54,753 nucleotides of DNA from Nemertoderma westbladi (Eukaryota > Animalia > Xenacoelomorpha), in contig JAUCBJ010003755.1 in the NCBI GenBank assembly GCA_032718475.1, positions 1 to 54,753 on the forward strand, read 5' to 3'. This document shows positions 19,906-45,000 of this stretch, in pieces (the stretch's first letter is position 1; every line of letters begins with the position of its first letter). The notes beneath the pieces are model-generated. The model made no database searches. It had not been told where the DNA came from and saw only the letters and a program-made list of their open reading frames with translations. The position numbers were made by a program, and so were the translations under genes.

Positions 19906-20859
19906 GTAAAGCACGTTTGTGTGTCTTTAACAGTTAGTCAAGGTACCCGCTAGTTTAACAGTAAAGCACGAGTTTTGTTTTGCTGTAGGCCTACTGTGTA
20001 CAGTAAGACATACAGTGTATTCATTAGGCTGTTAGTTAGAGTACGGTATTCATTAGTCGCAATACAGTAGTACAGTAGTGCATTAGGCTGATTTGCTGTT
20101 ACTGCGTACGGTAGAAAAGATATTTGTTTTGCTGTACCACATACAGTATTCATTAGGCTGTTAGGTTGGTGTACTATTTTACTTACCGTAATGCGTACAG
20201 TGGATGTACGGTAGTGCGTTTATTAATCGCAAATACAGCAGTTCATTAGGCCGTTAGGGCGAATTGTAAATTAGTAAGTTTTTTGAAAATTTTAGCTAGG
20301 TTTGTGAGAATTCAGTTTCGGTCAAAATTATTTTATCATAAAATCTAGAGTTTTGTACCGGTATGTTAGATAACCGCTTAGTTGTTTTATACCATCTGGA
20401 GATACATGGCGAGACGGAGCTTCTGAGTTTGGGGTTTGTGTGGGTCTGCGGGTTCGGTTTGCAATCAGCGAAGAGCTTGAAACTTTGGACGCGGACTTGG
20501 AATCTCCCAGCAAACAAGATTAGTTGTTCTGTTAGCACCATTGTATTTGTGGAAGCAGTAAAAAATTACCGGTTGTTTAACTGCGAAGCTGAACTCAATT
20601 TATTAGTTAGGATAGTTAGGTTTAGCCGGCCATGGTTTTTTGAATCGCTCAAGTTAGAGAGAGAGAGAGAGTGTCGCAACCCGAAGGTGTAGCCACGCGC
20701 TAGTGGATACATATAATATTTGAAATTAAAATTACGTCGATTAGAGCTATATATAAAATTAGAAATATTTGGGTGGCAAGTTCATTTTTGAATATTTTGA
20801 ATTAGATTCAGAAATTATTTTGTGTCATACCGGTATTTAAATGCTATATAATAACTATA

Positions 20860-21505
20860 CTACTACTACTAGGTCGAGCGAACTCGGACAGTGGAAATGA
20901 GATCCTTCCAGGCTTCCCGATTCTCCATAGTTGTCGCAATTTCGTTTCTCCCAAGTTCAGTATCCCTTTCAAGTTGATCTATATATGTTATGGCAGGTCG
21001 TCCACGACTACGCTTTCCATGAGTTGGTTGCCAGAGAAGTAGATCTAGTATGACCTCGTCTTTACTTCGCCAGCAGTGCCCACTGAATCTTAATCTGCGT
21101 TCACGGAGGGTGGTTGATACAGGTGGTATTGTACCATAAAGCTCGGCGTTTGTCATGTGTTGTCTCCAGCTGATGTTTAGGGCTGCCCTTAGTAGTCTTG
21201 TGTAGCAACCATCAATTCGTTGTTCAAGTGATTTAGTCAGTGTCCAGGTCTCACCCCCGTATAAAAATACACTTTCCACTGTGGCTCGAAAGAACTTGGT
21301 CTTCAGGTGCCTGGAGAGATCTGATTTCCAGATGGTATCCATTTTTGACAGCGCTACCCAAGCCTTTGCTTTCCTAACTTCTATGTCCTTTTTGCTACTC
21401 TCTATCCATGATCCAAGGTACTGGAAGTCATCGACCTGCCTTAGTTGATTATTATCAATGGTTGTCAAGTTTCCATCAACATTAAAGGTCATGAATTCGG
21501 TCTTG
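20860..21505 (-). mobile_element. 5'-truncated RTE-clade LINE nested in the BEL leader (C-terminal RT region, ORF 20869-21492)
   Basis: Motifs KTEFM...FQYLGS...LYGGETWTL...RRLRFSGHCWR...GRP. The stop codon is the first unit of the (TAG)n tail. 12-bp TSD ATAATAACTATA at 20848-20859 and 21506-21517. Confidence 0.95.
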
Positions 21506-21718
21506 ATAATAACTATAGAATTAATATTTTGTTTAAATATTATACCGGTATTTACTATAACTATATCCTATTAAATTCCCAATATTATATTGTAAATTTA
21601 TTTGACATTTTGAGACCAACTAATTATTTGACAAATAATTTAACTGTATTTTCGATTAAATTATATATATCTCGAATTTTGCGAGATTTTAGCCGGAAGG
21701 CAAAATATTATTTAGACT

Positions 21719-24700
21719 ATGAGTGTCTCAGAGAAGGAGGCACTAGAGGACAGCTATGAGACGGCGGCTGGACCGCCAACCGACGATAGCATTAATATAA
21801 CTGTCGACGACAATGCCGACTATGACGACACAGCGAGCGACGCTGACGTAAGTGAACAGGAGGACGAGACAGTAATTAGTGAGGACGAGCAAGGACCTCA
21901 AGTAATAGTATTAGGATCCCCTACCGCTACTGTAAGGAAGGATTGTATAGCAGCCCGGCCAGAGGTGAGTGATAGGGAGAGTAGTATAGCAGAAGCAAGA
22001 GCCCGGAGCCTGGTTTCCAGACCTGTGGGTATGGTAAGTGCCGTGGTCCCAGCGGCTATAAGGAGTACCCGTAGTTCCCGAAATAATCCTTCAAGCCCAC
22101 CGAGTGTGAGTCAGGTAAGCGAGAGAGAATTAGACATCGCGATAAAGAAGAAACTTCGCGCGCATGCCGGACATATAACCCGGACGGCGGATAAGGTAAG
22201 AAAGATGCTAGCCGACTCTGGTAACATTGGAAGGGAAGGGTTAGTAGAGATTAGAAAGGGATACAACTCAGCGTTATTCAAACAGACAGAGGAGCTTGCA
22301 GTCCTAGCGAAGAGAGCAGTGGAGTCTCAGTCGAGCGACGTGGCGACGAGGGTTTACGACAGGGCTTTAGCAGCCTTGTTAGAGCACCGTACGTTATCGG
22401 AGCGATTTCGACGAGTTAGGACAGAGAACTGGTTGCTATGGGCATCACAAGCGCAGGCGACTCAGGTGAGTGACGCAGAGTCGAGAAACTTAGTGGAGCG
22501 GGAAGAAAACCAAGATAAAGAAGAGCGCCGGTATCAGAGGGAAGTTACTAGCTGGCTGATGCAGAGTGGAGTGGTGGTACCAGGCCAGGTGCTACCAACG
22601 ACGGACAACATCCAACAGAGAACGTTAATTCCACCCAACGACGCATTTAGAGACAGTGGCAATTCCCAGGTTAGTCACGCGCGAGGTAAAGTTATATGCG
22701 CTAGATCCCTCGTTTCTCACAACTCGGCGGAAGAGAGAAGACGCCGACTGGACGAACAACAGGCAGAAGTTTTGCGTGCATCGGAAGCACGAAAGGAAGC
22801 CGAACGAGAACAGGAGCGCACACGTAAGTTGGACGCAGAGCTATGAGAATTGGAGGATATAAGTAAGCGCGAACGAGCGGAATGTGAGCAAAGAGAATGC
22901 GAGCTTCAAGCTGAGCGCAAGCGCAAGGAACTCGAACATGAACAGAGAGAACGCGAACTTCAACTTGAACGCGAACAGAAGGAACTCGAGCATGAACAGA
23001 AGAAATGCAAGCTTCAACTCGAACGCGAACGCAAGGAACGCAAACTCGAGATCGAGAAAAGAAGATGCACATTGTATGAAGAGAAGGCGCGTGTGGAAGA
23101 AGAGAGTGCAGCACAACTCGCGAGGGAAGAAGAACAACCTAAACTGGCGCAGTTGGAAAGTGCGAGACTAAACTTAGAGAGCGAAGAACGGACCAGGAAG
23201 GCGAATGAAATCGCCGAGAAAGGGATGCAAATGATCGAAGAATGTGGGGCGAGTGTAGGTACTGAGTTGCGAGAACTGTTCGCACTGCAGAAGGGCGAAC
23301 AGGAGGCAACTCCGACTATACGCGAGTCGACGACGACCAGAATTCCTATACCCGGTCCAGCTATTACGAGTACTCGGATCGCTAAACCGTTCTCTACATA
23401 TCGCACGCCAGTTGGTATTAGTGCTTCACCCATCGTGCAGGATCTGCGCCACCAGGACACCGCACCACTACATACCAAACGAGAGAAAGAAGAGTTTAGA
23501 GGAGAAACTCCGATGGGCCGAGTATTGGGCGAACCGAACCCGTGGGTTTGGAATACGTGGACGGAGCGCTGACCCAGTTCAACGGAGAACTTCCGGGTTA
23601 AACTGGAAGAGGGATCATATGAGAGACAGCGGATTACTCAGATAGAGCCGACTATACAACAGAACCCTAGCCAGGAATTTATTACGAGGGATGAGTTAAG
23701 TGCTAGTTTAGCGCAAGCTATATCGCTGCACATCCAACCTATAACGGACATGCTTAGTAACCTACAGTTAAGGGAAGCAGCCCAGGTAAGAAGTAATTCA
23801 AATCCTAGCAGGCCTGAGTTTAGATGAAGTCCAACCTAGTCAACGAGTATGCATATCGGAGGCAACTATACCACATGGACCTCAGGTAAGAACGCCTGTC
23901 CCTACGATTTATAATCCCAATTTCGAGAATTCGGCGGAAAAGTTTATACAAGAAGCCTGGGTCAGGGCTTCAGCACGCAAACCAACGCGAGCGTTGAGGA
24001 CTGACACAGACTCAAGCGATGAAGAGGAAGACATGAGACGTCAGAAGTCCCAAACCCGAAGGAAAGAAGGACCGACGCGGAGCAGGTAAGTTTGAATCCC
24101 CGGGAAAGGACCAGACTTAATAACCCTGCAGAACTAAACCATTTGTTAACCCGGAACGACGCAACCCTTAGAGACATAGGTAAGTTTGCCGCTAGGCAAG
24201 GACTGCCGATGCAACAACCCCAGAAGTTTATGGGCAACCATAGACATTGGAGGACGTTCAAAACCTATGTCGACGAACAGCTGACCAACAGCACCTTTAC
24301 TCCCAATGAGAAGTTCAACTATCTGCTTCAGATGCTCCATCGAGACCCTAGAGCCATTGCTGACAACTTCGTCGGAAATGAAAGAGCATTTGAGTTAGCA
24401 ATGAAGACGCTTAGCGACATCTACGGGAATAAAACCAAGATGGCACAGTCGATAGTGGAAGACTTGGGTAAAGGCGGAAGGATTACAACTCCGTTAGAGC
24501 TGTTGAACTTGGCGAACGCTATTTCAAATGCATTAGACATCTTGAGGACGGTGAATCTACCTCATCATGGTGATCACGCCGGAGTTTTGAAGAGCATAAT
24601 AAGACGTTTAAACATGCGTTACAGACAGAAATGGTGCAAATTAGAGAATAAGTTGGAGGGTCAAGGTAAGGTGTTGACACTTCAACACATCCATGACATG

Positions 24701-25165
24701 ATAGCCACAGATGCGGTAGCAGAGATGAAATCAAACTTCTCAGAGGAGAATATGAGGGAGTCTAAACCTGTTACCGGTAAGTCAATGGTAAGTTTTGACG
24801 ATGACAGGACCACTGTGACTTTTAACTCAGTAGACAGATATAATTCGAGTACCCCTGCCTTTAGATCAGACTCGCAAGTATGGTCAGGTGAGCAGTCAGA
24901 TAGACCTAAGTTAAAGCAACAGGAGTTACCAGTTGGATTTGTAGGTTGCCAATTCTGTTTACTAAAGGAGGTAAGATCTGACAACCATAAGTTAGACAGT
25001 TGCAGATGGTTCAAAGAATTAACTTCGGAACAGAGAAGAGTTCAAGTGCGGATGTTGGACACCTGTTGGGCATGTCTTGCGCCAGGCCATGTACGGTGGC
25101 AGTGCCTGAACAGTAAGGACAGATGCATGGAATGCGGCAGATTACATCACAAGTTGCTACACTAG
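21719..25165 (+). pseudogene. gag: BEL/Pao gag (acidic N-terminus, long E/R/K coiled coil, DUF1759-like region, triple Cys/His knuckle), interrupted
   Basis: ORF pieces 21719-22846, 22850-23572 and 24092-25165. Motifs F.G....W..F, EKFNYL, CQFC...H....C, CWACLAPGHVRWQC and CMECGRLHHKLLH. Confidence 0.92.
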
Positions 25166-28100
25166 ATCCAAATAGAGTTAAAGTCCACGCACGGGGTAGG
25201 GGACCTCAAGGGACACAAGATTTCGGTAGAACTAGACTCCCTACTCCCAAGAGACCAGCACACTCGCCAAGAATGGAGAGCATTGCCATTGGATGGATTT
25301 AAGTGTCTAGCTATGAAAGGGTTCGGCAGGCAGTTAGGTAAGGTGACACCGATAGTCCCATAGCACAGGAGTATTATGACAAGCTCAGAGTACCGAGACA
25401 CCAGGTAGGTTATAGGAATGTATCTATGTTGATTGGTCAGAACAGCTGATCGCACACCAAATATGGGAAACGAGACCAGCTGAGCCGCATGTAAATGGAC
25501 CACATGCCCATAGGACTATACTAGGTTGGTATACACGAGTACCCATGTCTTGTGAGTTTACAGGTGGCAACAAGCCAAAGGATAGACACGACGGATTACA
25601 GCCTATAATTCAACCACCGTTAATAGAACCACCAGACATAGACGAGTTTAGGAGAACCTGTATTGACCACTATAGTGACGTTAGCGAGTCGGACGAAGAG
25701 TTGATTCCCGATAATGTTAGGTTGTCGGAACCACTTTATAACGACCGGACAGATAGTGAACCCGAGGACTACTGTTATCAGACCCGTGGGTCTGGTTCAG
25801 CGGCCCACGCTACCTATTTGAGTAACGTTTTGACTTATACCGACATAGTGGAGGGTCAAGTGGATAGATATCGAGACCTCGACATTTTCCAATACAGTGA
25901 GGAGGAGTTGCACAAGGAGTTGATATGCCAGGACCTCGAGACAGGAGCTAGAACCGTCGAATGGCTGGATAGGGACGCAATGGAACCCGGTGGGTATGAC
26001 CTAACCATGTCCACTGATGAGAAACGTTCGCTAGAGATGATGGAAGACACCATACGTCTGCTACCGACAGGACATTTTGAAGTTAGAATGTTGTGGCGTC
26101 GACAACCTCCTAAGTTGGAGAACAACTACAACTTAGCCTTGAAAAGATTGAATGGAGTAAGGGCTCGGTTGCTGAAGAATCCAGATGTTAGGGAGAAGTA
26201 TTGCGCCCAGATAAACAACTATTTCGCCAAGGGATTTGCTGGGAAGGTAGAGGACCCGGACTTAGTGACAGACCAGACTTATTACCTCCCACACCACTAT
26301 GTGACTCACCCTGACAAAGCAGACAAAGTCCGAGTAGTCAACGACTGCGCAGCAGTCTATAGAGGTATGTCCCTGAACTCAGAGTTGATGGATGGTCCCA
26401 ACTTGAATAACTATTTGATAAGAATACTGTTGCGCTTTAGACAGTGGTGATTCGCGTTTACTTGCGACATCGAGGCGATGTTCCACCAGGTAAGAGCCTG
26501 CAAGGCGGACCAGGATAGTCTCAGATTTCTCTGGTTCGAGAATGAAGACCTATCCGGCCCAGTGGTTACATACCAGATGTATGTCAGGATATTCGGTGCC
26601 CGCGATAGTCCCAACGGCACGCTGTTTGTTCTAAAGAAAACGGCAACGGCCCAGATTGGTAAGTATCCAGTAGACGTTATTGAGTCCATCCTGAGAAACT
26701 TCTACATGGACGACGGATTGGTGTCCAAGGACACAGCAGAACAAGCCATAGAAGTGGCTCACGGCCTACAGGAGTGCTTGGCTACAGGGGGTTTTCCTCT
26801 GACCAAGTTCACTACCAACTCAGAGGCCCTATTAGAATCGTTCCCAGTGAAAGATCGCGGGAGCGGAGACATTGAATTGGGGGTAGAACCCATCCCCATG
26901 GCGCGAGTACTGGGACTCGCTTGGAATCCGAACACGGATAAGTTCCAGGTAAGAGTCTAGACAAAGTAGTCCAGACAAAGTTTTGACTAAGAGAATCTGC
27001 TTATCGACAATGAGTAGACTATTTGACCCGATGAACTTTATCAGCCCGGTAATATTACAGGCATGAGTATGTATGAGGAAAATTTGGTTGTCCGACTTAG
27101 AGTGCGACGAACCAATATCCCCTATACATGCAAAGCAGTGGAGAGAGTGGGAAGCCGAGTTGCATCTATTGAAAAATATAGATGTACCCCGCTCCTACTT
27201 TCCGAATCAGCTGGTATTTCCAGTTTAGTCCTGTTTATTTCCTGTTTAGTGCCGCAAGTGACACCGGCTTTGGTATGGTAGCCTACCTTCGCCGAGAGGT
27301 AAGTCAGGACAAGTTTGAGACGGCCTTTGTGACTTCTAGATCAAAGATAATGCCGGTCAAATACATGACTGTCCCTCATGCAGAGTTGCAGGCGGCAGTA
27401 GTCTCAGTCGAGGTAAGTAAGCAGATAATAGAGGAGTTAGACACGACATTGACCTTATTCTATTGGACGGACGCATCCTTAGTGTTAGTATACATTGCAG
27501 CCGACAACATTGCACTAAAGACATTTGTGACCAACAGACGCACTCAGATCGCCGACTTTTCGACGAAGGAACAATGGAGACATTGTCCGGGAGTGTTAAA
27601 CCCGGCCGACATAACTTCGAGAGGTGCTATGCCGGCAGAATTCTGTCAGGAAGAGTCCCAAGAGTTTTGGTTGAATGGACCTGATTTTCTAACGAGGACA
27701 CAGGAACATTGGCCAGAGCGACTGAAGATAGTGACCAATCCGATGCCAGAGGATGCAGAAGTCAAAATGGAGAAAGTCTCCAAGTCTAAGTCGAAAGCCA
27801 AACTCAACTCATTGGAGCGGCCCGAAGAGTCATTGGAGCGGCCTGAAGAGTCATTGGAGCGGCCTGAAGAGTCATTGGAGCGGCCTGAAGAGTCATTGGA
27901 GTGGCCCGGAGACCTGTCAGACCTACAGACTTATGTGACGACTAGGTCCGGAAGGGTAAGTTATGACATAAAACCACCCTTACAGACTACACAAGGGTCA
28001 CAATTGGTAAGCGACGGACAGAAAATGACCGACACAATGGAGCCTTTGGTTTCCAAACCTGCGGGTTTGGATTCGAAACTTCCATTAGCTAGCGGGCAAC

Positions 28101-28180
28101 TGTCGCTGGCATTAGAGCCATGTAGTATTTATGACAAATTACTAAATTCGTCTGCCTCTTGGCTGACAATTTGTAAATGA
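25166..28180 (+). pseudogene. pol: BEL/Pao pol: partial protease, reverse transcriptase and RNase H (Pao A17-type), interrupted
   Basis: Protease C-terminal motifs MLIGQN and PHAHRTILGW. RT motifs YYLPHH, KVRVVND, GPNL, DIEAMFHQV, FGARDSP and FYMDD. RNase H motifs FSAAS, ELQAA, FYWTDA, NPADITSRG and WLNGPDFL. Confidence 0.95.
27808..27905 (+). repeat. In-frame 21-bp tandem repeat (SLERPEE, about 4.5 copies) in the RNase H-integrase linker
   Basis: CATTGGAGCGGCCTGAAGAGT repeated. Confidence 0.95.
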
Positions 28181-29644
28181 ACTGCATGGTTAAGGCGATA
28201 CGTTTTGTACCTTTGTTTAAAACATTCGAAACATTTAGGAGAGGAATTAAAACATTTGAAGCATTATCAAATGTGTGCCTTCCCAAAATAATTCTATCTA
28301 TTATCGGCTCAACGACCAGTTCTCTATAAACCCCTTAGAAAATGGAGCCCATTAATCCATAAGGGTTTAATTTGTCATAGATCGAGAATCCAGACTGTCA
28401 ACATAAACTCACAGTTTAGGTTCCCAGTGATAATCCCTAGTCACCCAATAGAATTGCAAAGAGCGATTCTATGGGATATACATAAGAGGTTGCATCACGC
28501 GGGAAAGTTACACTGTTTGTCGGCAGCGAGACAGCGATTCATTCTATTGCAGCCAAGCAGGGCAGTAGGCACTATGTATGATGCCTGTCTGGTTTGCAAG
28601 AGAGTGAACGCCAGAGTATTGGAACAGGAGATGGCTGAACTCCTGGAAGCGAGAGTACAGGCATATGACCCACCCTTTACAAATACAGGGGTGGACTGCT
28701 TTGGTCCGATTGAGGCAAAGAGTGGACGGCTGACCCACAAGCGATGGGGCCTGCTACTGATATGCATGGCTAGTAGAGCCATACATATAGAGCGTGTGGC
28801 AGACATGTCGACCAAATCTCTGTTCCTGGCCTTAAAGAGATTTATGGCCAGGAGAGGACTAGTAAAGGCGTTTTACTCCGACAAGGGTACAAACTTTGTC
28901 GGAGGGAATAGCGAGTTGAACGCGGCTCATAGGGCGGCGCAGAACAGAGAAATTTCTGCAGCACTTTTGCCGCAAAGAGTGGAGTGGAGATTTAACACTC
29001 CAGAAAGTCCCTGGAGAGGAGGAAGTTGGGAGCGTTTGGTTCGCTCCATAAAGCAGGCTATTGCTAAGACAATGCCTGTAAACAAACAACTTATCGACGA
29101 CGAGCTGGTAACAGCTTTCATCGAAATCGAGCATACACTAAACTCGAGGCCGATAGCTATGTTGCCAGACGGTGTTGCATTAACGCCGAATCATTTGCTA
29201 ATGCAGAGTCCCGCGTTTCTTGTGCCGGCATCAGAACCCATTAGTGCCAACCTATACAGTCGTAAGAGCTGGAAAATAACACAGTTTGTCGCGTACACGT
29301 TCTAGGAATATTGGCGGGAATATTATCTTCCCACCATATCCACCAGATCGAAGTGGTACAAAACGGTTCGGAGCCTCCAAAGAGGAGACTATGTATTGAT
29401 AACCGAACCAATTGTCAAGAGAAAATATGGGGAAACCGGAGTCATCTTGCACATACACCCAGACGTGCAAAATATAGTGCGCACAGTCACTGTGAAAATA
29501 AGGTGCAAGTGTCCGCACCCAAAGAAGTGTAAAACTAATGGTTTACACACCTTGGATCGACCGGTCCAAGATATCGTGTTATTAGAGGAGACACGCATCG
29601 AGACAGGAGATTATAATTTGTCTCCTGCCTCAAACCAAAATTAG
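28181..29644 (+). pseudogene. pol: BEL/Pao integrase (HHCC zinc finger, DDE core, C-terminal DUF5641-like region), interrupted
   Basis: Motifs H...HHAG...CLVC, TGVDCFGP, SDKGTNFVG, GGSWERLV, LNSRP and LTPNHLL. TAG at 29303 replaces the conserved Trp of FW. VRTVTVK...RPVQDIV at the end. Confidence 0.95.
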
Positions 29645-30400
29645 AGTTGGACGCAACTCACTTCGTATGCATTCCTCGTATGCAAATACTAGGAAATGCA
29701 TAGGAGCGGGTTTGTGGTGATTTGCATTGAGAATTTGTCTGGCGGGTATCAAAACAAAATTTTATTTTCAAAAATGTTTGGAAAATTAAAAAATTTTAAA
29801 ATTAGAAATGAACCCAAGACAATTCCAGACGCTGTGTATAGACGCGTTTTAGAATTCGTCTATAGATATACAGTAATTTGAAAAGTCGTGAAGCCTGGAA
29901 AATAGCATTTAGAAACCATGGTGACGGCTATATTACGAAGGAGTGTAAATTGAGTTTAGCAACTTCCACAGATTGGTGCCAACAGTACAACAACCAAGGT
30001 GCTAAAGGTTAGTAGCACCAGAGGCGTACGCGGACCCCACTCAGTAGTTTGCAGTGGAGTGAGGTGTTCGATTTATCAAACCTGTGGGTTTGGTATAGTC
30101 GAGCACCGAGACTATTGTCCTTTCTAACTACTGTAGTTTAGTACAAGTAATGGGAGTAGTTTGGGCATCAAAAAGTGAGTTGGTCACGGCCAGTTTATCT
30201 CCAAAGTTTTTGCGCTATGCATGGGAATAGGTTAGAGGATAGTTAGGAATGAGACGGGATCTAGAGAGTCGAACCTGAACTGCTGGAAGGCGGCTGGGGG
30301 GTTCGGGACGTCTGTCCTTCGGCATCATCTAACTGATTTACCCACAGAGTAATTAGTTACGTAACGGACCTATTGGGATATATGTATATACGCAGCTATA

Positions 30401-33400
30401 ATGGAGAAGGAAATTAGAGCGCAACCGAGGAGAGGATTTACTGCCAGAGAGGAGGCGGAACTACCATTTGCCCGACCCGGGTGTAAAGACTCAAACGTCT
30501 ACTACCATGGGAGGTCGGTGATAGACTTGAATGGGAAGTACAAGCCTACGTATGATAAAGAGTTGAGGAGGGAACGGATGAGAGCGTTGGGAGACCGTAT
30601 GGAGGTTTAAAGGAAGGAGTATCGCACTCGTTATCCCTACGATTTTGCTTTAGATATATGTGATATTAGCGCAGATCCGGATGAGGAAATCGCACGGCTG
30701 TACCATATGAACATGTATTTACGATATGACGAACCTCTACCTGCAGTCCGAGATCAGTTCGACGGAGTGCATCTTTACCGGAGGACTCGAGGCGAGGATC
30801 AAGACACGCCAAAGTTCTTCAGCGTATATAAGTTGTTCTACAAATGTGGTGAATGCATGAATAAACAAGATGTGGTGATTCCCGATCGACTGAACGAGCA
30901 ACATCCTGAACCGATATTAACGCGATGTCAAGCTCACCAGTTCCTTAGATACAACGAGGGAGGTTACCCAATGAGCAACCCGATGATCAGTATCGACTTT
31001 AGCGGAAAGCGACCTCCGAGACCCATTATGCCGACCGTTACGACTTTAGATCCGTATACGGGGATTAAACCCTGTTCGACACCCAGTTTGATAGAGACGG
31101 CAGCAGCCATTTCGCTATACTGAGCCTATAAGGACCTAGACGTGCGGCGCGAAGCGGCACGGGACTCGGGTACCAAACCCACGGGTTTGGAGCTCTCGAG
31201 TCCCTGGACTACGTTTACTTTGCCTCACCGAGCGAGAAATCTCACGCCCGAGCATCAGGACGATATAGATGCATTGCGGCAGGAGGAGCGAGCGGCGAAG
31301 GCGAAACAATTATTCGAAGAGCGGGTAGCGGAGTATAATAAGACCGTGGATAGACATCAGGAGGAGACGAGGAGAGTGACCGGATTTGTTCCACAGGCCG
31401 TATCTCAACCCCGACTGGTGTATTATTCCAACGGCAACGAACCTGCGATATTGGTAGATCACCCGGAGTCGCGAGAAGCGATTAGATTCTTGCCGATGGT
31501 GAGGATGTCGGATCATTGGAACGTCGACTGCCTACGGGAAGTTTTATGCGCGAAGTTCTTGCGTGACATCCCAATGCAGATAACGGATTACGACACGCTA
31601 GACAAGATTGGAGCCCTGGGGAAAGAGAGCAAGCTATTTGGATGGTTGGATAAGTACATAAAGGTATGGGTCGCGATGGCTACATTTCCAGACGACGAGG
31701 AGGTAGACCAGACGTGGCTGAGGAGAAAGGGTTCCTACACCCGATACGATGACCACAAGGCTATCGAGCGCATGTGGACCCCATCCGACGAGATCCAGCG
31801 TCAGTGGAGAAAGACGGAGGAATCACTACAAGATTGGCGAGTGATGTTCTACGACAATGAGGGAGGGTCTCATCAAGAGTGCTTAACTAGTAAGTGCATT
31901 CAAATTCGCGCGGCCGATGGTGTGAATCATGTATTTATGCGCGTGAGGGCGGACCATAATAACAACACAATATCGGAAAGGGAAGGATCCCAGGGAACAG
32001 ATTTTGGAGGTATGCAGGCGAGGAGGTATGCACGGAGCGGAGCGTATCGACGCCAGAATGCTACCCAAGAAAGTTAGAGAGGCGATTCTCAACCAAGATT
32101 ACGTCAAGGTGGGATCGGGAGTCCAGAGCGATTTGGAGAGTGACTTCAACGCCATGACTGATTTGGAGGACAGATTGCCGAGACCGTTTGTCGACACCAA
32201 GCTATTGTTGCTATGGGCACAAGATATTGGAATTTATAGGGAGTATCCCAACTCTGCCAAGACTGGTATGGGCTTCATAGTGCATTTGTTATATAATTTG
32301 GACTTCAAGTTAAAGACGCAAAAGAAATACGAGGAGGCGTATGGTGAATTTAACACGCCACCGGGAGCGGAGTTCAAATCCCACTTCAAGCGGCAAGCGT
32401 TAGTGTATTGGAACATCTGCGCGCCACCCCATGCGTCGCTGCAATATTATTTGGTGCTTGAGTCGAACATGGTAACTTGTTTATAAGCGGATATCGTTGT
32501 GCGAGTTTTGAAGCGTCATCCATTGGTATTCGGAGGAGATCAATACATTCGCTCGAAAGGGGGAATCCAATCCACGTGATGAAGCGTTTCTTAACCCCGT
32601 TCTTCAACCAATCGTTAGAGAATACGTCGATGGCTAGGAGAGGATTAGCGATATTCGAGGGAGTATATCGACAGAACATCGGAGATTTGGGAGACCGACC
32701 ATCGATGGAGTATCCAATGCTAGAGGCCTTGGAGAAGTGGTTCGGGAATCAAACCCGCGGGTTTGGTACTCCCGTCCACTTGGAGGCGGATAGACCCGTT
32801 AGAGAGGGTTGGCCGGAGACGTTAGTAGAGGTATTCGGAGTGGATCTTCCGGTGGAGAAGACATATCCGAAGCGAATGCGGGAGGAAATATTGGAGAAAG
32901 AGGACAAAGGCGAAGATGTTTATTTTGTTCCGGACCGACAACCTCTGACCGGAGAGGACGACATCGTATTAGATATTGGGAAGGAAGGGAGTGCGAAGCC
33001 GATTTGAGACCTCATATATGAGAGGGCCTGGTTTCCACAAGCGCGTTGATGTAAGCTGTGCGGCAGCATGAGACACAATCAAAAGTCATGCGACGCGGTA
33101 ATAAGCATAAGGTCTGCCGTTGGTGTAACGAGACAGATCACTCGTTTCATACGTGCACCGTCTTCATTTCTCAATGCGGATATTGTGGGGTAAAGGGACA
33201 TCGTAGCGCGAGATGCCAACTGCGAGACGATTCCTTCCAAAACCATAGCACCAACCTACTCCGAGAGATGCTAGATAAGTGGGAGGGTGTGGCTGATTAC
33301 CACATCCAAGCACAAATGCGTTGGTTGCCGTTCAAGGCAGGATACGGATTTTGGGCAGTAGACCCATCGCACATCGCATACGAGCCGTATCTGCAATCAC

Positions 33401-34083
33401 TACCGCAATATCAGGAGCTAATATTAACCGCTCAAGATCTTCCGCAGAACACTGGAGTCATTGTTGTTCGGGAATACTTCAGACAGCTAAACATGGACAA
33501 TAAATGTACTTGGAACTTTGTTGCTATTTGTGACCGTATAACCAAGGGTCTATTTTCGGAAACTAGGAAGGTGGTGCATGCGCGAGGAGACTGGAGAATG
33601 GTGGCTATCCAATACCGCAACGAGTTCTTGTTGACTCACGTACCGGTGGGGTCATTGACCACCGAGCGGATAAAGGAGCAGCGAACTGCAGCGCCCACAG
33701 CGACAACTGCCTGAGCTCAAGGCTCGTGGCGAGAACCAGGAGGAGAGGTCCAAGACAAGCGTCAAGTCAAGGACGACCACTATCATTCTATTATAGAAGC
33801 ACAACGGTTGCAGCGCAAGGTGCAGGGCGCGTCCGAAAAGGCGTGCGTGCAACTGCAGAAGGAGGAGTTGGCGGAGGCGACCATGGGAACGCGACAATTG
33901 GGACGAGGCCGAGGGAGGAACACCAGCCGGGAATCAGTCGGGGCCCAGGGAACATCGTCGCTGGTTCCGGGGAGTGACGCCTCACGGACGCGGTCAACAG
34001 AGTCGACAGGAGGAAGACTGGTGTATCTGGGGAGGGGGCGTAATAGAGGAGCGAGCCCGAAGAACCCAGGAGCGGGTCGGTAA
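30401..34083 (+). pseudogene. Additional retrotransposon ORF (about 1,200 codons reconstructed): putative DEDDy/WRN-like 3'-5' exonuclease, three CCHC knuckles and an RG-rich tail
   Basis: ORF pieces at 30401, 30707, 31142 and 32477 share one frame. Pieces at 33058 and 33808 share another. Exo motifs: VMFYDNE (31841-31861), CIQI..ADG, LP..VREAILNQDYVKVGSGVQSD (to 32132), FVDT..L, KTGMG, and W...PP...LQYYLVLE (to 32462). Knuckles at 33050-33091, 33115-33156 and 33175-33216. Confidence 0.75.
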
Positions 34084-34550
34084 TGCGATCGTATCACGGA
34101 GCGACAGACTCTAGATATATACATCATCGTCGCTCTGATGTATATTGTAGCATTTTTTGTAAACATTCGACTGGACTCATATACACTAGTCGTACTAATT
34201 CGAATTTATATTATGAGAGAGGCGAAGGAGGTGATTGGGGAGACAAACCTGCGGGTTTGGCTTACTCCTTCCACCTACCCCAGCTAAGTTTATTTGAAGG
34301 CGAAATTTTGTAAATTTAATTTGTATGTAGTAATCATTATGTAGAACGAAGGAGAAGGTAATATTTTTGTAAATTTGATTTGTATGCAAACCCATTATGC
34401 AATATATCTGCAATATTTTATAAATACTTAGAACTATTATGATACCAAGTTAATTAGATTATTTGAAAGTAAGTTTTATTTTGTTTTGTTTACATCGCCC
34501 TATATTCTTCTACAATTGGAGGGAAACATTGCTTGTTTCCCTTGGAGCGG

Positions 34551-35461
34551 TGTTACGATATATGGCGCTGTGTACCTATATTAGCCGTCATACAGTATAA
34601 TTATTAGATAAGCCATAAAGACGCGCAATGATATTTAGACAAGGAAAGCAAAACGCCCATATTTTTGAATTTATCCATTTTATACAGTATGTAGTCCTAC
34701 CTAGGTAATTTTGTAGTTAAATATAAGTAAATAGTTCCACGGTAGCAAGTTTCCTATGAAACCCTTGATATAAGCTTGCTGTTATTAGCCTCAATAGGAT
34801 TAACTGTGTATTGTTTTTAATTTTCTTTATATTTGCGCTAAATTAGAGTTTTTATGTACCGCATTATTAGTACCGCTAAATTAAGCATCGCCAAAATTAC
34901 CATATATGGTGACGATTTGTGATTCCAAGGAGCAATAGGTTCCCAATCCGGCTTCCTTATTGGCCTAACTGCTTCCAGGTTGGTCTAATGGTAGCGCGGA
35001 TTGGGGAACCAATCAGAGAACTATTGCATCATCCTTCGTGAATCACCTATAAATTGGCGGTATTTCCGGTATGTGCTATTGTAATTCAGGTAATTCCATT
35101 GCAATCTAGTGTGTAATTCTTTCTTAGTTTATCCACAATCTCAGTTTTTGTGTATTTCTGTATTTCCATTTGTTTTCTTGCAATAATTTGCAAAGGATTG
35201 CAGAGGAAAGCAAATAATTTGCAGGAGCCGTAGAAAATTAGTAAAATATATTAGCGGACGGCAGGTTAGCGCCATCCAACAGTAAGTAGCGGTTTTGTAT
35301 TTAGCAGTCCTACAGTAGTAATAGCACGCTCCTGATCACCCCTAGTTTAACAGTAAAGCAGTCTTTGTGTCCTTATCGGTTAGGCATGGGGTGGCCTGTT
35401 TAACAGTAAAGCACGTTTTGTGTGTCTTTAACAGTTAGTCAAGGTACCCGCTAGTTTAACA
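34551..35461 (+). repeat. 3' LTR (911 bp, internally deleted relative to the 5' LTR)
   Basis: Starts TGTTACGATATATGGCGC as at 17710. About 11 differences in the first 640 or so bp by eye. Ends TTTAACA, followed by the TSD. Confidence 0.95.
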
Positions 35462-36068
35462 AACCCTAAACACACGCAGTACGTTGATCGCCAACCCTAA
35501 ACACAAAGCAGTACGTTGATTTCCAACCCTAAACACACAGCAGTACGTTGATCGCCAACCCTAAACACACGCAGTACGTTGATCGCCAACCCTAAACACA
35601 AAGCAGTACGTTGATCGCCAACCCTAAACACACAGCAGTACGTTGATCGCCAACCCTAAACACACGCAGTACGTTGATCGCCAACCCTAAACACACGCAG
35701 TACGTTGATCGCCAACCCTAAACACACGCAGTACGTTGATCGCCAACCCTAAACACACGCAGTACGTTGATCGCCAACCCTAAACACACGCAGTACGTTG
35801 ATAGCCAACCCTAAACACACGCAGTACGTTGATCGCCAACCCTAAACACACGCAGTACGTTGATCGCCAACCCTAAACACACGCAGTACGTTGATCGCCA
35901 ACCCTAAACACACGCAGTACGTTGATCGCCAACCCTAAACACACGCAGTACGTTGATCGCCAACCCTAAACACACGCAGTACGTTGATCGCCAACCCTAA
36001 ACACACGCAGTACGTTGATCGCCAACCCTAAACACACGCAGTACGTTGATCGCCAACCCTAAACACAC
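35462..36068. repeat. 31-bp satellite, right part (about 19 units)
   Basis: Same unit as 16596-17709. Confidence 0.99.
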
Positions 36069-39000
36069 TTGGAATTGTTTGTGGTGCAATCTGGTTGATC
36101 GGCAACCCTAAACACACGTGGGATTGTTTGTGGTGCAATCTGGTTGATCGCCAACCCTAAACACACTTGGAATTGTTTGTGGTGCAATCTGGTTGATCGC
36201 CAACCCTAAACACACTTGGGATTGTTTGTGGTGCAATCTGGTTGATCGCCAACCCTAAACACACTTCGGATTGTTTGTGGTGCAATCTGGTTGATCGCCA
36301 ACCCTAAACACACTTGGGATTGTTTGTGGTGCAATCTGGTTGATCGCCAACCCTAAACACACTTCGGATTGTTTGTGGTGCAATCTGGTTGATCGCCAAC
36401 CCTAAACACACTTGGGATTGTTTGTGGTGCAATCTGGTTGATCGCCAACCCTAAACACACGCAGTACGTTGATCGCCAACCCTAAACACACTTGGGATTG
36501 TTTGTGGTGCAATCTGGTTGATCGCCAACCCTAAACACACTTGGGATTGTTTGTGGTGCAATCTGGTTGATCGCCAACCCTAAACACACTTGGGATTGTT
36601 TGTGGTGCAATCTGGTTGATCGCCAACCCTAAACACACTTGGGATTGTTTGTGGTGCAATCTGGTTGATCGCCAACCCTGAACACACTTGGGATTGTTTG
36701 TGGTGCAGTCTGGTTGATCGCCAACACTAAACACACTTGGGATTGTTTGTAGTGCAATCTGGTTGATCGCCAACCCTAAACACACTTGGGATTGTTTGTG
36801 GTGCAATCTGGTTGATCGCCAACCCTAAACACACTTGGGATTGTTTGTGGTGCAATCTGGTTGATCGCCAACCCTAAAAACACTTGGGATTGTTTGTGGT
36901 GCAATCTGGTTGATCGCCAACCCTAAACACACGCAGTACGTTGATCGCCAACCCTAAACACACTTGGGATTGTTTGTGGTGCAATCTGGTTGATCGTCAA
37001 CCCTAAACACACGCAGTACGTTGATCGCCAACCCTAAACACACTTGGGATTGTTTGTGGTGCAATCTGGTTGATCGCCAACCCTAAACATACTTGGGATT
37101 GTTTGTGGTGCAATCTGGTTGATCGCCAACCCTAAAAACACTTGGGATTGTTTGTGGCGCAATCTGGTTGATCGCCAACCCTAAACACACTTGGGATTGT
37201 TTGTGGTGCAATCTGGTTGATCGCCAACCCTAAACACACTTGGGATTGTATGTGGGTATGTGGTGTAAACTGGTTGATCGCCAACCCTAAACACACTTGG
37301 GATTGTTTGTGGTGCAATCTGGTTGATCGCCAACCCTAAACACACTTGGGATTGTTTGTGGTGCAATCTGGTTGATCGCCAACCCTAAACACACTTGGGA
37401 TTGTTTGTGGTGCAATCTGGTTGATCGCCAACCCTAAACACACTTGGGATTGTTTGTGGTGCAATCTGGTTGATCGCCAACCCTAAACACACTTGGGATG
37501 ATTTGTGGTGCAATCTGGTTGATCGCCAACCCTAAACACACTTGGGATTGTTTGTGGTGTAATCTGGTTGATCGCCAACCCTAAACACACTTGGGATTGT
37601 TTGTGGTGCAATCTGGTTGATCGCCAACCCTAAACACACTTGGGATTGTTTGTGGTGCAATCTAGTTGATCGCCAACCCTAAACACACTTGGGATTGTTT
37701 GTGGTGCAATCTGGTTGATCGCCAACCCTAAACACACTTGGGATTGTATGTGGTGTAATCTGGTTGATCGCCAACCCTAAACACACTTGGGATTGTTTGT
37801 GGTGCAATCTGGCTGATCGCCAACCCTAACACACTTGGGATTGTTTGTGGTGCAATCTGGTTGATCGCCAACCCTAAACACACTTGGGATTGTTTGTGGT
37901 GCAATCTGGTTGATCGCCAACCCTAAACACACTTGGGATTGTTTGTGGTGCAATCTGGTTGATCGCCAACCCTAAACACACTTGGGATTGTTTGTGGTGC
38001 AATCTGGTTGATCGCCAACCCTAAACACACTTGGGATTGTTTGTGGTGCAATCTGGTTGATCGCCAACCCTAAACACACTTGGGATTGTATGTGGTGTAA
38101 TCTGGTTGATCGCCAACCCTAAACACACTTGGGATTGTTTGTGGTGCAATCTGGCTGATCGCCAACCCTAACACACTTGGGATTGTTTGTGGTGCAATCT
38201 GGTTGATCGCCAACCCTAAACACACTTGGGATTGTTTGTGGTGCAATCTGGTTGATCGCCAACCCTAAACACACTTCGGATTGTTTGTGGTGCAATCTGG
38301 TTGATCGCCAACCCTAAACACACTTGGGATTGTTTGTGGTGCAATCTGGTTGATCGCCAACCCTAAACACACTTCGGATTGTTTGTGGTGCAATCTGGTT
38401 GATCGCCAACCCTAAACACACTTGGGATTGTTTGTGGTGCAATCTGGCTGATCGCCAACCCTAACACACTTGGGATTGTTTGTGGTGCAATCTGGCTGAT
38501 CGCCAACCCTAACACACTTGGGATTGTTTGTGGTGCAATCTGGTTGATCGCCAACCCTAAACACACATGGGATTGTATGTGGTGTAATCTGGTTGATCGC
38601 CAACCCTAAACACACTTGGGATTGTTTGTGGTGCAATCTGGCTGATCGCCAACCCTAACACACTTGGGATTGTTTGTGGTGCAATCTGGTTGATCGCCAA
38701 CCCTAAACACACTTGGGATTGTATGTGGGTATGTGGTGTAAACTGGTTGATCGCCAACCCTAAACACACTTGGGATTGTTTGTGGTGCAATCTGGTTGAT
38801 CGCCAACCCTAAACACACTTGGGATTGTTTGTGGTGCAATCTGGTTGATCGCCAACCCTAAACACACTTGGGATTGTTTGTGGTGCAATCTGGTTGATCG
38901 CCAACCCTAAACACACTTGGGATGATTTGTGGTGCAATCTGGTTGATCGCCAACCCTAAACACACTTGGGATTGTTTGTGGTGTAATCTGGTTGATCGCC

Positions 39001-42000
39001 AACCCTAAACACACTTGGGATTGTTTGTGGTGCAATCTGGTTGATCGCCAACCCTAAACACACTTGGGATTGTTTGTGGTGCAATCTAGTTGATCGCCAA
39101 CCCTAAACACACTTGGGATTGTTTGTGGTGCAATCTGGTTGATCGCCAACCCTAAACACACTTGGGATTGTATGTGGTGTAATCTGGTTGATCGCCAACC
39201 CTAAACACACTTGGGATTGTTTGTGGTGCAATCTGGCTGATCGCCAACCCTAACACACTTGGGATTGTTTGTGGTGCAATCTGGTTGATCGCCAACCCTA
39301 AACACACTTGGGATTGTTTGTGGTGCAATCTGGTTGATCGCCAACCCTAAACACACTTGGGATTGTTTGTGGTGCAATCTGGTTGATCGCCAACCCTAAA
39401 CACACTTGGGATTGTTTGTGGTGCAATCTGGTTGATCGCCAACCCTAAACACACTTGGGATTGTTTGTGGTGCAATCTGGTTGATCGCCAACCCTAAACA
39501 CACTTGGGATTGTATGTGGTGTAATCTGGTTGATCGCCAACCCTAAACACACTTGGGATTGTTTGTGGTGCAATCTGGCTGATCGCCAACCCTAACACAC
39601 TTGGGATTGTTTGTGGTGCAATCTGGTTGATCGCCAACCCTAAACACACTTGGGATTGTTTGTGGTGCAATCTGGTTGATCGCCAACCCTAAACACACTT
39701 CGGATTGTTTGTGGTGCAATCTCGTTGATCGCCAACCCTAAACACACTTGGGATTGTTTGTGGTGCAATCTGGTTGATCGCCAACCCTAAACACACTTCG
39801 GATTGTTTGTGGTGCAATCTGGTTGATCGCCAACCCTAAACACACTTGGGATTGTTTGTGGTGCAATCTGGCTGATCGCCAACCCTAACACACTTGGGAT
39901 TGTTTGTGGTGCAATCTGGCTGATCGCCAACCGTAACACACTTGGGATTGTTTGTGGTGCAATCTGGTTGATCGCCAACCCTAAACACACTTGGGATTGT
40001 TTGTGGTGCAATCTGGCTGATCGCCAACCCTAAACACACTTGGGATTGTTTGTGGTGCAATCTGGTTGATCGCCAACCCTATACACACTTGGGATTGTTT
40101 GTGGTGCAATCTGGTTGATCGCCAACCCTAACACACTTGGGATTGTTTGTGGTACAATCTGGTTGATCGCCAACCCTAAACACACTTGGGATTGTTTGTG
40201 GTGCAATCTGGTTGATCGTCAACCCTAACACACTTGGGATTGTTTGTGGTGCAATCTGGTTGATCGCCAACCCTAAACACACTTGGGATTGTTTGTGGTG
40301 CAATCTGGCTGATCGCCAACCCTAAACACACTTGGGATTGTTTGTGGTGCAATCTGGTTGATCGCCAACCCTAAACACACGCAGTACGTTGATCGCCAAC
40401 CCTAAACACACTTGGGATTGTTTGTGGTGCAATCTGGTTGATCGCCAACCCTAAACATACTTGGGATTGTTTGTGGTGCAATCTGGTTGATCGCCAACCC
40501 TAAACACACTTGGGATTGTTTGTGGCGCAATCTGGTTGATCGCCAACCCTAAACACACTTGGGATTGTTTGTGGTGCAATCTGGTTGATCGCCAACAGTA
40601 AACACACTTGGGATTGTTTGTGGTGCAATCTGGTTGATCGCCAACCCTAAACACACTTGGGATTGTATGTGGGTATGTGGTGTAAACTGGTTGATCGCCA
40701 ACCCTAAACACACTTGGGATTGTATGTGGGTATGTGGTGTAAACTGGTTGATCGCCAACCCTAAACACACTTGGGATTGTTTGTGGTGCAATCTGGTTGA
40801 TCGCCAACCCTAAACACACTTGGGATTGTTTGTGGTGCAATCTGGTTGATCGCCAACCCTAAACACACTTGGGATTGTTTGTGGTGCAATCTGGTTGATC
40901 GCCAACCCTAAACACACTTGGGATTGTTTGTGGTGCAATCAGGTTGATCGCCAACCCTAAACACACTTGGGATGATTTGTGGTGCAATCTGGTTGATCGC
41001 CAACCCTAAACACACTTGGGATTGTTTGTGGTGTAATCTGGTTGATCGCCAACCCTAAACACACTTGGGATTGTTTGTGGTGCAATCTGGTTGATCGCCA
41101 ACCCTAAACACACTTGGGATTGTTTGTGGTGCAATCTAGTTGATCGCCAACCCTAAACACACTTGGGATTGTTTGTGGTGCAATCTGGTTGATCGCCAAC
41201 CCTAAACACACTTGGGATTGTATGTGGTTTAATCTGGTTGATCGCCAACCCTAAACACACTTGGGATTGTTTGTGGTGCAATCTGGCTGATCGCCAACCC
41301 TAACACACTTGGGATTGTTTGTGGTGCAATCTGGTTGATCGCCAACCCTAAACACACTTAGGATTGTTTGTGGTGCAATCTGGTTGATCGCCAACCCTAA
41401 ACACACTTGGGATTGTTTGTGGTGCAATCTGGTTGATCGCCAACCCTAAACACACTTGGGATTGTTTGTGGTGCAATCTGGTTGATCGCCAACCCTAAAC
41501 ACACTTGGGATTGTTTGTGGTGCAATCTGGTTGATCGCCAACCCTAAACACACTTGGGATTGTATGTGGTGTAATCTGGTTGATCGCCAACCCTAAACAC
41601 ACTTGGGATTGTTTGTGGTGCAATCTGGCTGATCGCCAACCCTAACACACTTGGGATTGTTTGTGGTGCAATCTGGTTGATCGCCAACCCTAAACACACT
41701 TGGGATTGTTTGTGGTGCAATCTGGTTGATCGCCAACCCTAAACACACTTCGGATTGTTTGTGGTGCAATCTGGTTGATCGCCAACCCTAAACACACTTG
41801 GGATTGTTTGTGGTGCAATCTGGTTGATCGCCAACCCTAAACACACTTCGGATTGTTTGTGGTGCAATCTGGTTGATCGCCAACCCTAAACACACTTGGG
41901 ATTGTTTGTGGTGCAATCTGGCTGATCGCCAACCCTAACACACTTGGGATTGTTTGTGGTGCAATCTGGCTGATCGCCAACCCTAACACACTTGGGATTG

Positions 42001-45000
42001 TTTGTGGTGCAATCTGGTTGATCGCCAACCCTAAACACACTTGGGATTGTTTGTGGTGCAATCTGGCTGATCGCCAACCCTAAACACACTTGGGATTGTT
42101 TGTGGTGCAATCTGGTTGATCGCCAACCCTAAACACACTTGGGATTGTTTGTGGTGCAATCTGGTTGATCGCCAACCCTAACACACTTGGGATTGTTTGT
42201 GGTGCAATCTGGTTGATCGCCCACCCTAAACACACTTGGGATTGTTTGTGGTGCAATCTGGTTGATCGTCAACCCTAACTCACTTGGGATTGTTTGTGGT
42301 GCAATCTGGTTGATCGCCAACCCTAAACACACTTGGGATTGTTTGTGGTGCAATCTGGCTGATCGCCAACCCTAAACACACTTGGGATTGTTTGTGGTGC
42401 AATCTGGTTGATCGCCAACCCTAACACACTTGGGATTGTTTGTGGTGCAATCTGGTTGATCGCCAACCCTAAACACACTTGGGATTGTTTGTGGTGCAAT
42501 CTGGTTGATCGCCAACCCTAACACACTTGGGATTGTTTGTGGTGCAATCTGGTTGATCGCCAACCCTAAACACACTTGGGATTGTTTGTGGTGCAATCTG
42601 GTTGATCGCCAACCCTAAACATACTTGGGATTGTTTGTGGTGCAATCTGGTTGATCGCCAACCCTAAACACACTTGGGATTGTTTGTGGTGCAATCTGGT
42701 TGATCGCCAACCCTAAACATACTTGGGATTGTTTGTGGTGCAATCTGGTTGATCGCCAACCCTAAACATACTTGGGATTGTTTGTGGTGCAATCTGGTTG
42801 ATCGCCAACCCTAAACACACTTGGGATTGTATGTGGTGCAATCTGGTTGATCGCCAACCCTAACACACTTGGGATTGTTTGTGGTGCAATCTGGTTGATC
42901 GCCAACCCTAAACACACTTGGGATTGTTTGTGGTGCAATCTGGTTGATCGCCAACCCTAAACACACTTGGGATTGTATGTGGTGCAATCTGGTTGATCGC
43001 CAACCCTAACACACTTGGGATTGTTTGTGGTGCAATCTGGTTGATCGCCAACCCTAAACACACTTGGGATTGTTTGTGGTGCAATCTGGCTGATCGCCAA
43101 CCCTAACACACTTGGGATTGTTTGTGGTGCAATCTGGTTGATCGCCAACCCTAAACACACTTGGGATTGTATGTGGGTATGTGGTGTAAACTGGTTGATC
43201 GCCAACCCTAAACACACTTGGGATTGTTTGTGGTGCAATCTGGTTGATCGCCAACCCTAAACACACTTCGGATTGTTTGTGGTGCAATCTCGTTGATCGC
43301 CAACCCTAAACACACTTGGGATTGTTTGTGGTGCAATCTGGTTGATCGCCAACCCTAAACACACTTCGGATTGTTTGTGGTGCAATCTGGTTGATCGCCA
43401 ACCCTAAACACACTTGGGATTGTTTGTGGTGCAATCTGGCTGATCGCCAACCCTAACACACTTGGGATTGTTTGTGGTGCAATCTGGCTGATCGCCAACC
43501 GAACACACTTGGGATTGTTTGTGGTGCAATCTGGTTGATCGCCAACCCTAAACACACTTGGGATTGTTTGTGGTGCAATCTGGCTGATCGCCAACCCTAA
43601 ACACACTTGGGATTGTTTGTGGTGCAATCTGGTTGATCGCCAACCCTAAACACACTTGGGATTGTTTGTGGTGCAATCTGGTTGATCGCCAACCCTAACA
43701 CACTTGGGATTGTTTGTGGTACAATCTGGTTGATCGCCAACCCTAAACACACTTGGGATTGTTTGTGGTGCAATCTGGTTGATCGTCAACCCTAACACAC
43801 TTGGGATTGTTTGTGGTGCAATCTGGTTGATCGCCAACCCTAAACACACTTGGGATTGTTTGTGGTGCAATCTGGCTGATCGCCAACCCTAAACACACTT
43901 GGGATTGTTTGTGGTGCAATCTGGTTGATCGCCAACCCTAAACACACGCAGTACGTTGATCGCCAACCCTAAACACACTTGGGATTGTTTGTGGTGCAAT
44001 CTGGTTGATCGCCAACCCTAAACATACTTGGGATTGTTTGTGGTGCAATCTGGTTGATCGCCAACCCTAAACACACTTGGGATTGTTTGTGGCGCAATCT
44101 GGTTGATCGCCAACCCTAAACACACTTGGGATTGTTTGTGGTGCAATCTGGTTGATCGCCAACAGTAAACACACTTGGGATTGTTTGTGGTGCAATCTGG
44201 TTGATCGCCAACCCTAAACACACTTGGGATTGTATGTGGGTATGTGGTGTAAACTGGTTGATCGCCAACCCTAAACACACTTGGGATTGTATGTGGGTAT
44301 GTGGTGTAAACTGGTTGATCGCCAACCCTAAACACACTTGGGATTGTTTGTGGTGCAATCTGGTTGATCGCCAACCCTAAACACACTTGGGATTGTTTGT
44401 GGTGCAATCTGGTTGATCGCCAACCCTAAACACACTTGGGATTGTTTGTGGTGCAATCTGGTTGATCGCCAACCCTAAACACACTTGGGATTGTTTGTGG
44501 TGCAATCAGGTTGATCGCCAACCCTAAACACACTTGGGATGATTTGTGGTGCAATCTGGTTGATCGCCAACCCTAAACACACTTGGGATTGTTTGTGGTG
44601 TAATCTGGTTGATCGCCAACCCTAAACACACTTGGGATTGTTTGTGGTGCAATCTGGTTGATCGCCAACCCTAAACACACTTGGGATTGTTTGTGGTGCA
44701 ATCTAGTTGATCGCCAACCCTAAACACACTTGGGATTGTTTGTGGTGCAATCTGGTTGATCGCCAACCCTAAACACACTTGGGATTGTATGTGGTTTAAT
44801 CTGGTTGATCGCCAACCCTAAACACACTTGGGATTGTTTGTGGTGCAATCTGGCTGATCGCCAACCCTAACACACTTGGGATTGTTTGTGGTGCAATCTG
44901 GTTGATCGCCAACCCTAAACACACTTAGGATTGTTTGTGGTGCAATCTGGTTGATCGCCAACCCTAAACACACTTGGGATTGTTTGTGGTGCAATCTGGT

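Follow-up and report, generated by a model that had tools for sequence, protein, structure and literature searches.

The window analysed here, 54,753 nt of contig JAUCBJ010003755.1 from the xenacoelomorph Nemertoderma westbladi (assembly GCA_032718475.1), contains one long terminal repeat (LTR) retrotransposon, a 17.75-kb BEL/Pao element at 17710-35461, which carries a third open reading frame (ORF3) on the plus strand at 30401-34083. We conclude with high confidence that ORF3 encodes a DEDDy-fold exonuclease joined to CCHC zinc knuckles. It is not the first of its kind: a 2017 paper described DEDDy ORF3s from LTR retrotransposons (PMC5408684), and the idea of an exonuclease ORF3 is not new. 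New here are the BEL/Pao host superfamily and the knuckle-fusion architecture; in addition, the active site is probably altered and the element carries an array of predicted hairpins.

The exonuclease domain

A phmmer search of 1.84 billion proteins returned two matches. One of them, P0002, a protein of 648 aa, shows 26% identity to the exonuclease across 197 columns (E 9e-14). A separate match covers the knuckles (E 6e-8), and the two regions follow each other as in ORF3; P0003 is a cluster-mate of the second phmmer match. A third lineage came from a metagenome scan in which one of 163 candidates was confirmed (locus L001, protein P0005), with an open 614-residue frame laid out like ORF3: exonuclease, three knuckle-like motifs and an RG-containing tail. 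Word-index protein searches, one of which (with the family profile) covered proteins of 1135-3240 residues, added no relatives, nor did the viral contigs, genome contigs and plasmids searched, the plasmids giving a single match at E 6.

A profile of four family sequences matched 59 bacterial WRN-like exonucleases with a probability of 96.5% (E 9e-10) over a span that begins at Exo I and closes with the helix that follows Exo II, compared with 0.16% for the reversed profile and at most 4.4% for 60 column shuffles. This supports the original prediction, made from the DNA alone, of a WRN/EXD/RNase D-type domain of the DnaQ/DEDDy group. The 59 references were taken from 120 bacterial loci, 75 of which passed a length filter; the four that were checked are all PF01612. 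The window sequence by itself reached a probability of 52% against this reference. An unaltered piece of ORF3 (31947-32483) scored 10.1 bits on the bacterial profile, a value attained by none of 200 shuffles, and the other six ORF3 pieces and four gag/pol pieces stayed at shuffle level. PF01612 gave weak matches, all below cut-off, to three of the four homologues scanned (P0002, E 0.2; P0003, E 0.069; P0005, E 0.019) and none to P0001. Against the PDB, the domain profile had two matches at E<10, EXD2 and RNase D, and the top Atlas match, a supporting lead, was a cluster with PF01612 in 53% of its members (0.91). A PDB sequence search with the exonuclease piece yielded two rotavirus VP4 rows (E 0.11 and 0.63), which were taken as chance.

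A model of the P0002 domain, built on an alignment seeded with bacterial sequences, has a mean predicted local distance difference test score (pLDDT) of 72 and matches DEDDy enzymes with Z scores up to 13.2 and root-mean-square deviations (rmsd) of 3.3-4.7 among the top rows. The values for WRN, RNase D, Exd1 and Nibbler are Z 12.0-12.5 and rmsd 3.3-4.2 over 152-172 residues. The aligned ranges reach the last helix of the model, which had no bacterial rows behind it. Both the profile match with its controls and the seeded model of this homologue point to a DnaQ-like fold.

Within ORF3 the domain spans 31840-32570 on the plus strand, and its motifs run in the order D 31853, E 31859, KVGSG with D 32130, FVDT, Y 32448 and E 32460; every motif quoted in the original prediction is present and in the order given there, the unusual Y-x3-E included. 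D 31853 and E 31859 form the D-x-E of Exo I, placed by eye in the window against the homologues, whose own DxE was aligned to a WRN-like reference by hhalign; MAFFT did not align the window's Exo I with theirs. The Exo II aspartate, D 32130, falls in a column that is invariant in an alignment from which P0005 was left out. The window, P0002 and P0003 all have the acids of Exo I and Exo II.

Exo III reads Y-x3-E instead of Y-x3-D in both the window and P0002, which makes ORF3 a variant and not a canonical DEDDy member. Automatic alignments set this motif on an earlier helix or nowhere, which is why the bacterial rows behind the seeded model, the second one built, were ended ahead of Exo III. 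Scanning P0002 with the reference block gave a best placement in which its Glu occupies the Asp column (as high in 2 of 200 shuffles). No significant placement resulted for P0003, P0005 or the window alone, whose score was reached by 146 of 200 shuffles, and Exo III of the window was placed through P0002, to which it aligns in this register (7 of 2000 shuffles as high). An insertion of roughly 10-30 residues precedes the Exo III Trp. The predicted metal site is thus likely D-E-D-E, shared with P0002, and its occurrence in two proteins at 26% identity argues against simple decay. We predict, with confidence only slightly better than even, that the exonuclease is catalytically active.

ORF3 and the element that carries it

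Three CCHC knuckles (C-x2-C-x4-H-x4-C) lie at 33050-33091, 33115-33156 and 33175-33216 on the plus strand, some 200-270 residues downstream of the exonuclease. They do not resemble the knuckles of the element's own gag (E 1.5). ORF3 closes with a basic, RG-rich tail (33880-34080, plus strand), and 8 of its 15 RG/GR dipeptides fall within the last 130 residues; knuckles and tail are both as originally described. The N-terminal ~480 residues (30401-31830, plus strand) belong to no known family, with no match in Pfam or the PDB, and nothing in the homologues matches the residues that link exonuclease and knuckles.

ORF3 starts with an ATG at 30401 and ends with a stop at 34081-34083. It comprises about 1,225 codons, with an X set at each of nine breaks: internal stops at 30608, 31121, 32484, 33005, 33047 and 33712, and frameshifts near 31950-32010, 32573 and 33110. 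A single sense ORF of about 1,200 codons had been predicted correctly, although it joins ten segments and not seven. A non-coding spacer of 750 nt separates it from gag-pol, and it lies outside the polyprotein, 3' of the integrase in the env slot, as a separate ORF downstream of pol like the DEDDy ORF3s of bdelloids.

Sister contigs from four public runs were aligned to the element (16,758, 10,673, 8,045 and 86 records per run). X1 and X2 come from one sample, so the runs represent three samples at most; no single contig spans the stretch, and depth does not equal copy number. When the element is divided into 30 bins, X1-X3 have contigs in every one and X5 has them in 26, and ORF3 is covered throughout, as had been anticipated for sister copies. 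At three of the six internal stops the full sister depth reads otherwise, as does about half of it at one of the three frameshifts. These differences come from 40 of 1,566 substitution rows and 12 of 152 insertion/deletion rows, the other ORF3 breaks lying outside those rows. ORF3 therefore belongs to the element family as a whole, and at least some of its breaks are private to this copy, in which gag-pol is likewise broken. Of the transitions tested between this copy and its sisters (21700-35200), 14 of 21 are in CpG context, against a background of about 0.22-0.27.

The element is assigned to BEL/Pao because DUF1759 (E 6e-10), Peptidase_A17 (E 3e-15), Integrase_H2C2 (E 8e-6) and DUF5641 (E 7e-12) all pass their Pfam cut-offs in its gag-pol region (21731-29644, plus strand), which contains stops and frameshifts; RVT_1 scores weakly (E 0.086). 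Other features of the superfamily are also in place: the Peptidase_A17 region is followed by integrase and DUF5641, gag combines DUF1759 with triple Cys/His knuckles (in the ORF at 24023), and the LTRs end in TG..CA and are flanked on both sides by a 5-bp target-site duplication, AACCC (17705-17709 and 35462-35466). An in-frame 21-nt tandem repeat occupies 27809-27906 in pol, between the Peptidase_A17 region and the integrase.

The hairpin array and the setting of the element

Ten predicted palindromic hairpins with the core CARACC-YRYG-GGTYTG, which the original prediction did not mention, were located by motif and fold scans between 18479 and 34259 on the plus strand. They lie at about 18479, 20441, 22018, 23535, 25779, 28054, 30077, 31174, 32750 and 34244; the first two are looser and lie in the leader, the others in gag, pol, the spacer, ORF3 (two) and the 3' untranslated region, and all three codon phases are used. 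The motif was defined after inspection. As a palindromic 16-mer pattern it has 15 matches at eight sites, all inside the element, where 0.45 are expected, and a loop-plus-stem scan found nine sense and four antisense sites, whereas the 37 kb of flanking DNA had no site and shuffles averaged 0.17. Eight of the hairpins are spaced at 1.1-2.3 kb, more evenly than random placement would give (19 of 20,000).

The sense strand folds better at six of eight sites, and its non-Watson-Crick stem pairs are G-U in eight cases and A-C in none (p 0.008). Leaving out the CpG-prone pair reduces this ratio to 4:0, and one loop position differs in the sisters, which together indicate that CpG decay explains part of the hairpin variation. 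Covariation was not significant (53 of 500 shuffles). Rfam gave no matches, the hairpin 17-mer occurs at 48 loci in viral contigs with never more than one site within 3 kb, and no copy of the motif was found in the 2.8-kb L001. The array is likelier to be a set of sense-RNA signals for packaging or localisation than a DNA-binding site, the less likely reading.

The 5' LTR (17710-19960) and 3' LTR (34551-35461), both on the plus strand, differ at 16 of 905 positions in their common parts (889 matches, 16 mismatches; 1.8%). This copy has more breaks than such a divergence suggests, for which LTR conversion, faster CpG decay and assembly errors are possible causes. A 1.28-kb segment of the 5' LTR (18353-19637) without counterpart in the 3' LTR contains one hairpin and a second TATA-like box, and may therefore be native and lost from the 3' LTR. 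The 5' LTR ends inside a 55-nt tandem repeat (19842-19970), and a short purine tract (34518-34526) stands just before the 3' LTR. Nested in the leader is a fragment of a non-LTR retrotransposon reverse transcriptase on the minus strand (20869-21567; a 232-aa ORF, DUF6451 below cut-off only), which we take to be RTE-like. The element is inserted in register into a 31-nt satellite, within which the 5' target-site duplication lies; this passes gradually into a satellite of 49 nt that has part of the unit in common with it (both within 16624-17710 and 35462-47109). Two further satellites of the window have units of 15 nt (1495-12109) and 37 nt (48143-53025).

Known relatives and possible functions of ORF3

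The bdelloid elements Juno and Vesta are of the Ty3/gypsy type. DEDDy ORF3s with a DEED motif were described in both, and also in Athena/Terminons (Rodriguez, Kenefick, Arkhipova 2017, PMC5408684), and are repeated in reviews (PMC6431247, PMC6338049). Like those of Juno and Vesta, the ORF3 studied here is a separate post-pol ORF in the env slot with an RNase D-like DEDDy domain, no membrane segment and one catalytic Asp replaced by Glu (PMC5408684). It differs in its BEL/Pao host, in reading D-E-D-E where their description gives DEED, and in its ~1,225 residues with three CCHC knuckles, an RG tail and a 480-residue N-terminus, a fusion absent from the available text of that paper. DEDDy exonucleases also occur in Dada DNA transposons, where, unlike in ORF3, the domain has the canonical DEDD, is inserted within the DDE transposase and is proposed to act on DNA ends (PMC3706591, in the text available). 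A literature search, with Repbase, Dfam and most subscription journals outside its scope, found no BEL/Pao exonuclease ORF, knuckle fusion or D-E-D-E site, and no paper on an Exo III Asp-to-Glu mutant; PMC7968707, in the text available, has nothing further on this motif.

Among cellular proteins, Trypanosoma brucei RNase D (TbRND; PDB 7c42) likewise has a DEDDy exonuclease followed by zinc fingers, which raise RNA binding and cleavage (PMC7797062). The P0002 model matches it with Z 11.7 and rmsd 3.9 (164 aligned residues, 19% identity), and the top Atlas cluster for P0002 has a TbRND-like exonuclease-finger layout (0.86, a lead only). TbRND has four fingers, whereas ORF3 has three knuckles set 200-270 residues downstream, and the likeness in layout is probably convergent. 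WRN, EXD2, EXD1, Nibbler (mut-7) and Egalitarian (Egl) share the fold and the motif order, including LP..L..LL.....KVG....D and W...P....Q..Y, but not the Exo III Glu or the insertion before the Exo III Trp, and the identity of the domain to any solved member is no more than about 20%. As the structural matches are tied, no single donor can be named, and the suggested capture from a particular host gene (EXD1, EXD2, mut-7 or WRN) finds no support.

We tentatively predict, at somewhat below an even chance, that ORF3 is an accessory exoribonuclease that weakens RNA silencing of the element from within the host cell. Its product would be translated independently of gag-pol, a spliced message being one possible source, and so by default would not be packaged with the reverse transcriptase. 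The knuckles and RG tail would hold single-stranded RNA and pass its 3' end to the nuclease, with the zinc fingers of TbRND as the model, and the targets would be host small RNAs or silencing intermediates, trimmed or sequestered. The nearest folds include the small-RNA factors Nibbler and Exd1, and the CpG transition excess fits a host that methylates the element family. This kinship and this signature, together with the location of ORF3 outside the polyprotein and the TbRND precedent, fit counter-silencing.

A number of observations weigh against such an enzyme or such a role. Pfam returned no families for the window ORF3 pieces or the X read-throughs. The structure modelled is that of P0002 and not of the window's protein, and the WRN-like sequences used as seed make the fold match of this model partly circular. 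An unseeded model reached a pLDDT of 29, the last helix of the P0002 model has a pLDDT of about 55 or less, and the best Foldseek matches have an rmsd of about 14. Exo III carries Glu and not Asp. P0005 has Asn in Exo I (N-x-E) and Glu in Exo II at catalytic positions, which suggests that part of the family is probably not catalytic, L001 (1-1845) probably representing a non-catalytic branch. A branch-point/acceptor-like string 54 nt upstream of the ORF3 ATG (30329-30347, plus strand) hints weakly that the message may be spliced, but is not above chance (793 of 5000 shuffles contain such a string). Egalitarian can dispense with its catalytic residues, although all five are in place (bioRxiv 2025.08.03.668247), and for the bdelloid ORF3s no clear link with copy number was seen and a role in silencing, not against it, has been raised (Rodriguez et al. 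2017, PMC5408684, in the text available).

The Egalitarian precedent leads to a possible but rather unlikely alternative, that ORF3 is a binding adaptor of the Egalitarian/EXD1 kind, catalytic or not, which recognises the element's hairpins and serves the transport, protection or packaging of its RNA. Stem-loops of 40-65 nt, the I-factor signal among them, are bound by Egl, itself a DEDDy protein (bioRxiv 2025.08.03.668247), and Egl is among the fold matches of P0002 (Z 10.7); the non-canonical Exo III and the ten hairpins, which are confined to the element, evenly spaced, present in all codon phases and biased by G-U wobbles towards sense RNA, are consistent with such a function. However, nothing links ORF3 to the hairpins, for which Gag or a host protein could be the binder, and the array itself is open to the objections of a post hoc motif, non-significant covariation, a wobble bias of 4:0 once the CpG-prone pair is removed, variation due in part to CpG decay, sense folding favoured at six sites of eight and the missing copy in L001. 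A two-part system would combine the adaptor and counter-silencing roles: an undescribed D-E-D-E exonuclease and three-knuckle protein, widespread in invertebrate mobile elements, would read hairpins placed every 1-2 kb, shield, route or package element RNA and trim host silencing RNAs. We regard this combination as improbable; in the literature searched, a hairpin self-recognition code is undescribed for LTR retrotransposons, although no search aimed at the hairpin motif was made.

The enzyme might instead work, in active form, within the particle, where it would trim the 3' ends of the element's RNA or of its primer, remove RNase H fragments or proofread cDNA. The knuckles are of nucleocapsid type (P0002 matches that of HIV, E 1e-4), no primer-binding-site-like start was found directly after the 5' LTR, and related proposals have been made for the bdelloid ORF3s (PMC5408684) and, for DNA ends, the Dada transposons (PMC3706591). 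We nevertheless hold this to be distinctly unlikely, as ORF3 is outside the polyprotein, beyond the 750 nt of non-coding DNA that follow pol, and shows no evident packaging signal for its protein. To our knowledge, moreover, BEL/Pao elements generally replicate without such an exonuclease. There is a small chance that ORF3 is a passenger, captured sequence without function, given that this copy is broken at nine places and that env and GDSL ORF3 variation in bdelloids looked neutral within a genome (PMC5408684). The sisters, however, differ at three of the stops and gag-pol of this copy is broken too, the motif order and acidic residues are kept at 26% identity, and ORF3 has been resident long enough to hold two element hairpins. 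Finally, its position and the blank Pfam result would suit a divergent env or a separate nested element with motifs arising by chance, a reading which is largely refuted and hardly credible. The highest 19-residue hydropathy in ORF3 is 0.76, implying no membrane segment; the signal peptide and transmembrane anchor of an env were thus not found, no dedicated signal-peptide predictor having been run. No convincing termini bracket ORF3 (no terminal repeats beyond a 19-nt, 79% AT-rich pair), the hairpin motif is common to ORF3, gag and pol, and the profile and shuffle controls stand against chance motifs. The original prediction had likewise held that ORF3 is not env, and had named a nested insertion beforehand as the outcome that would count against it.

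How animal retrotransposons defend themselves against small-RNA silencing is largely open, and few element-encoded candidates are available. The present element adds a second LTR superfamily to that of the bdelloid Juno and Vesta as a carrier of exonuclease ORF3s, and its ORF3 defines a distinct protein family, whose naturally open homologues P0002 and P0005 can be assayed directly. Its evenly spaced hairpins offer a short and concrete RNA target for the question of how a BEL/Pao element picks out its own genome or keeps it safe.

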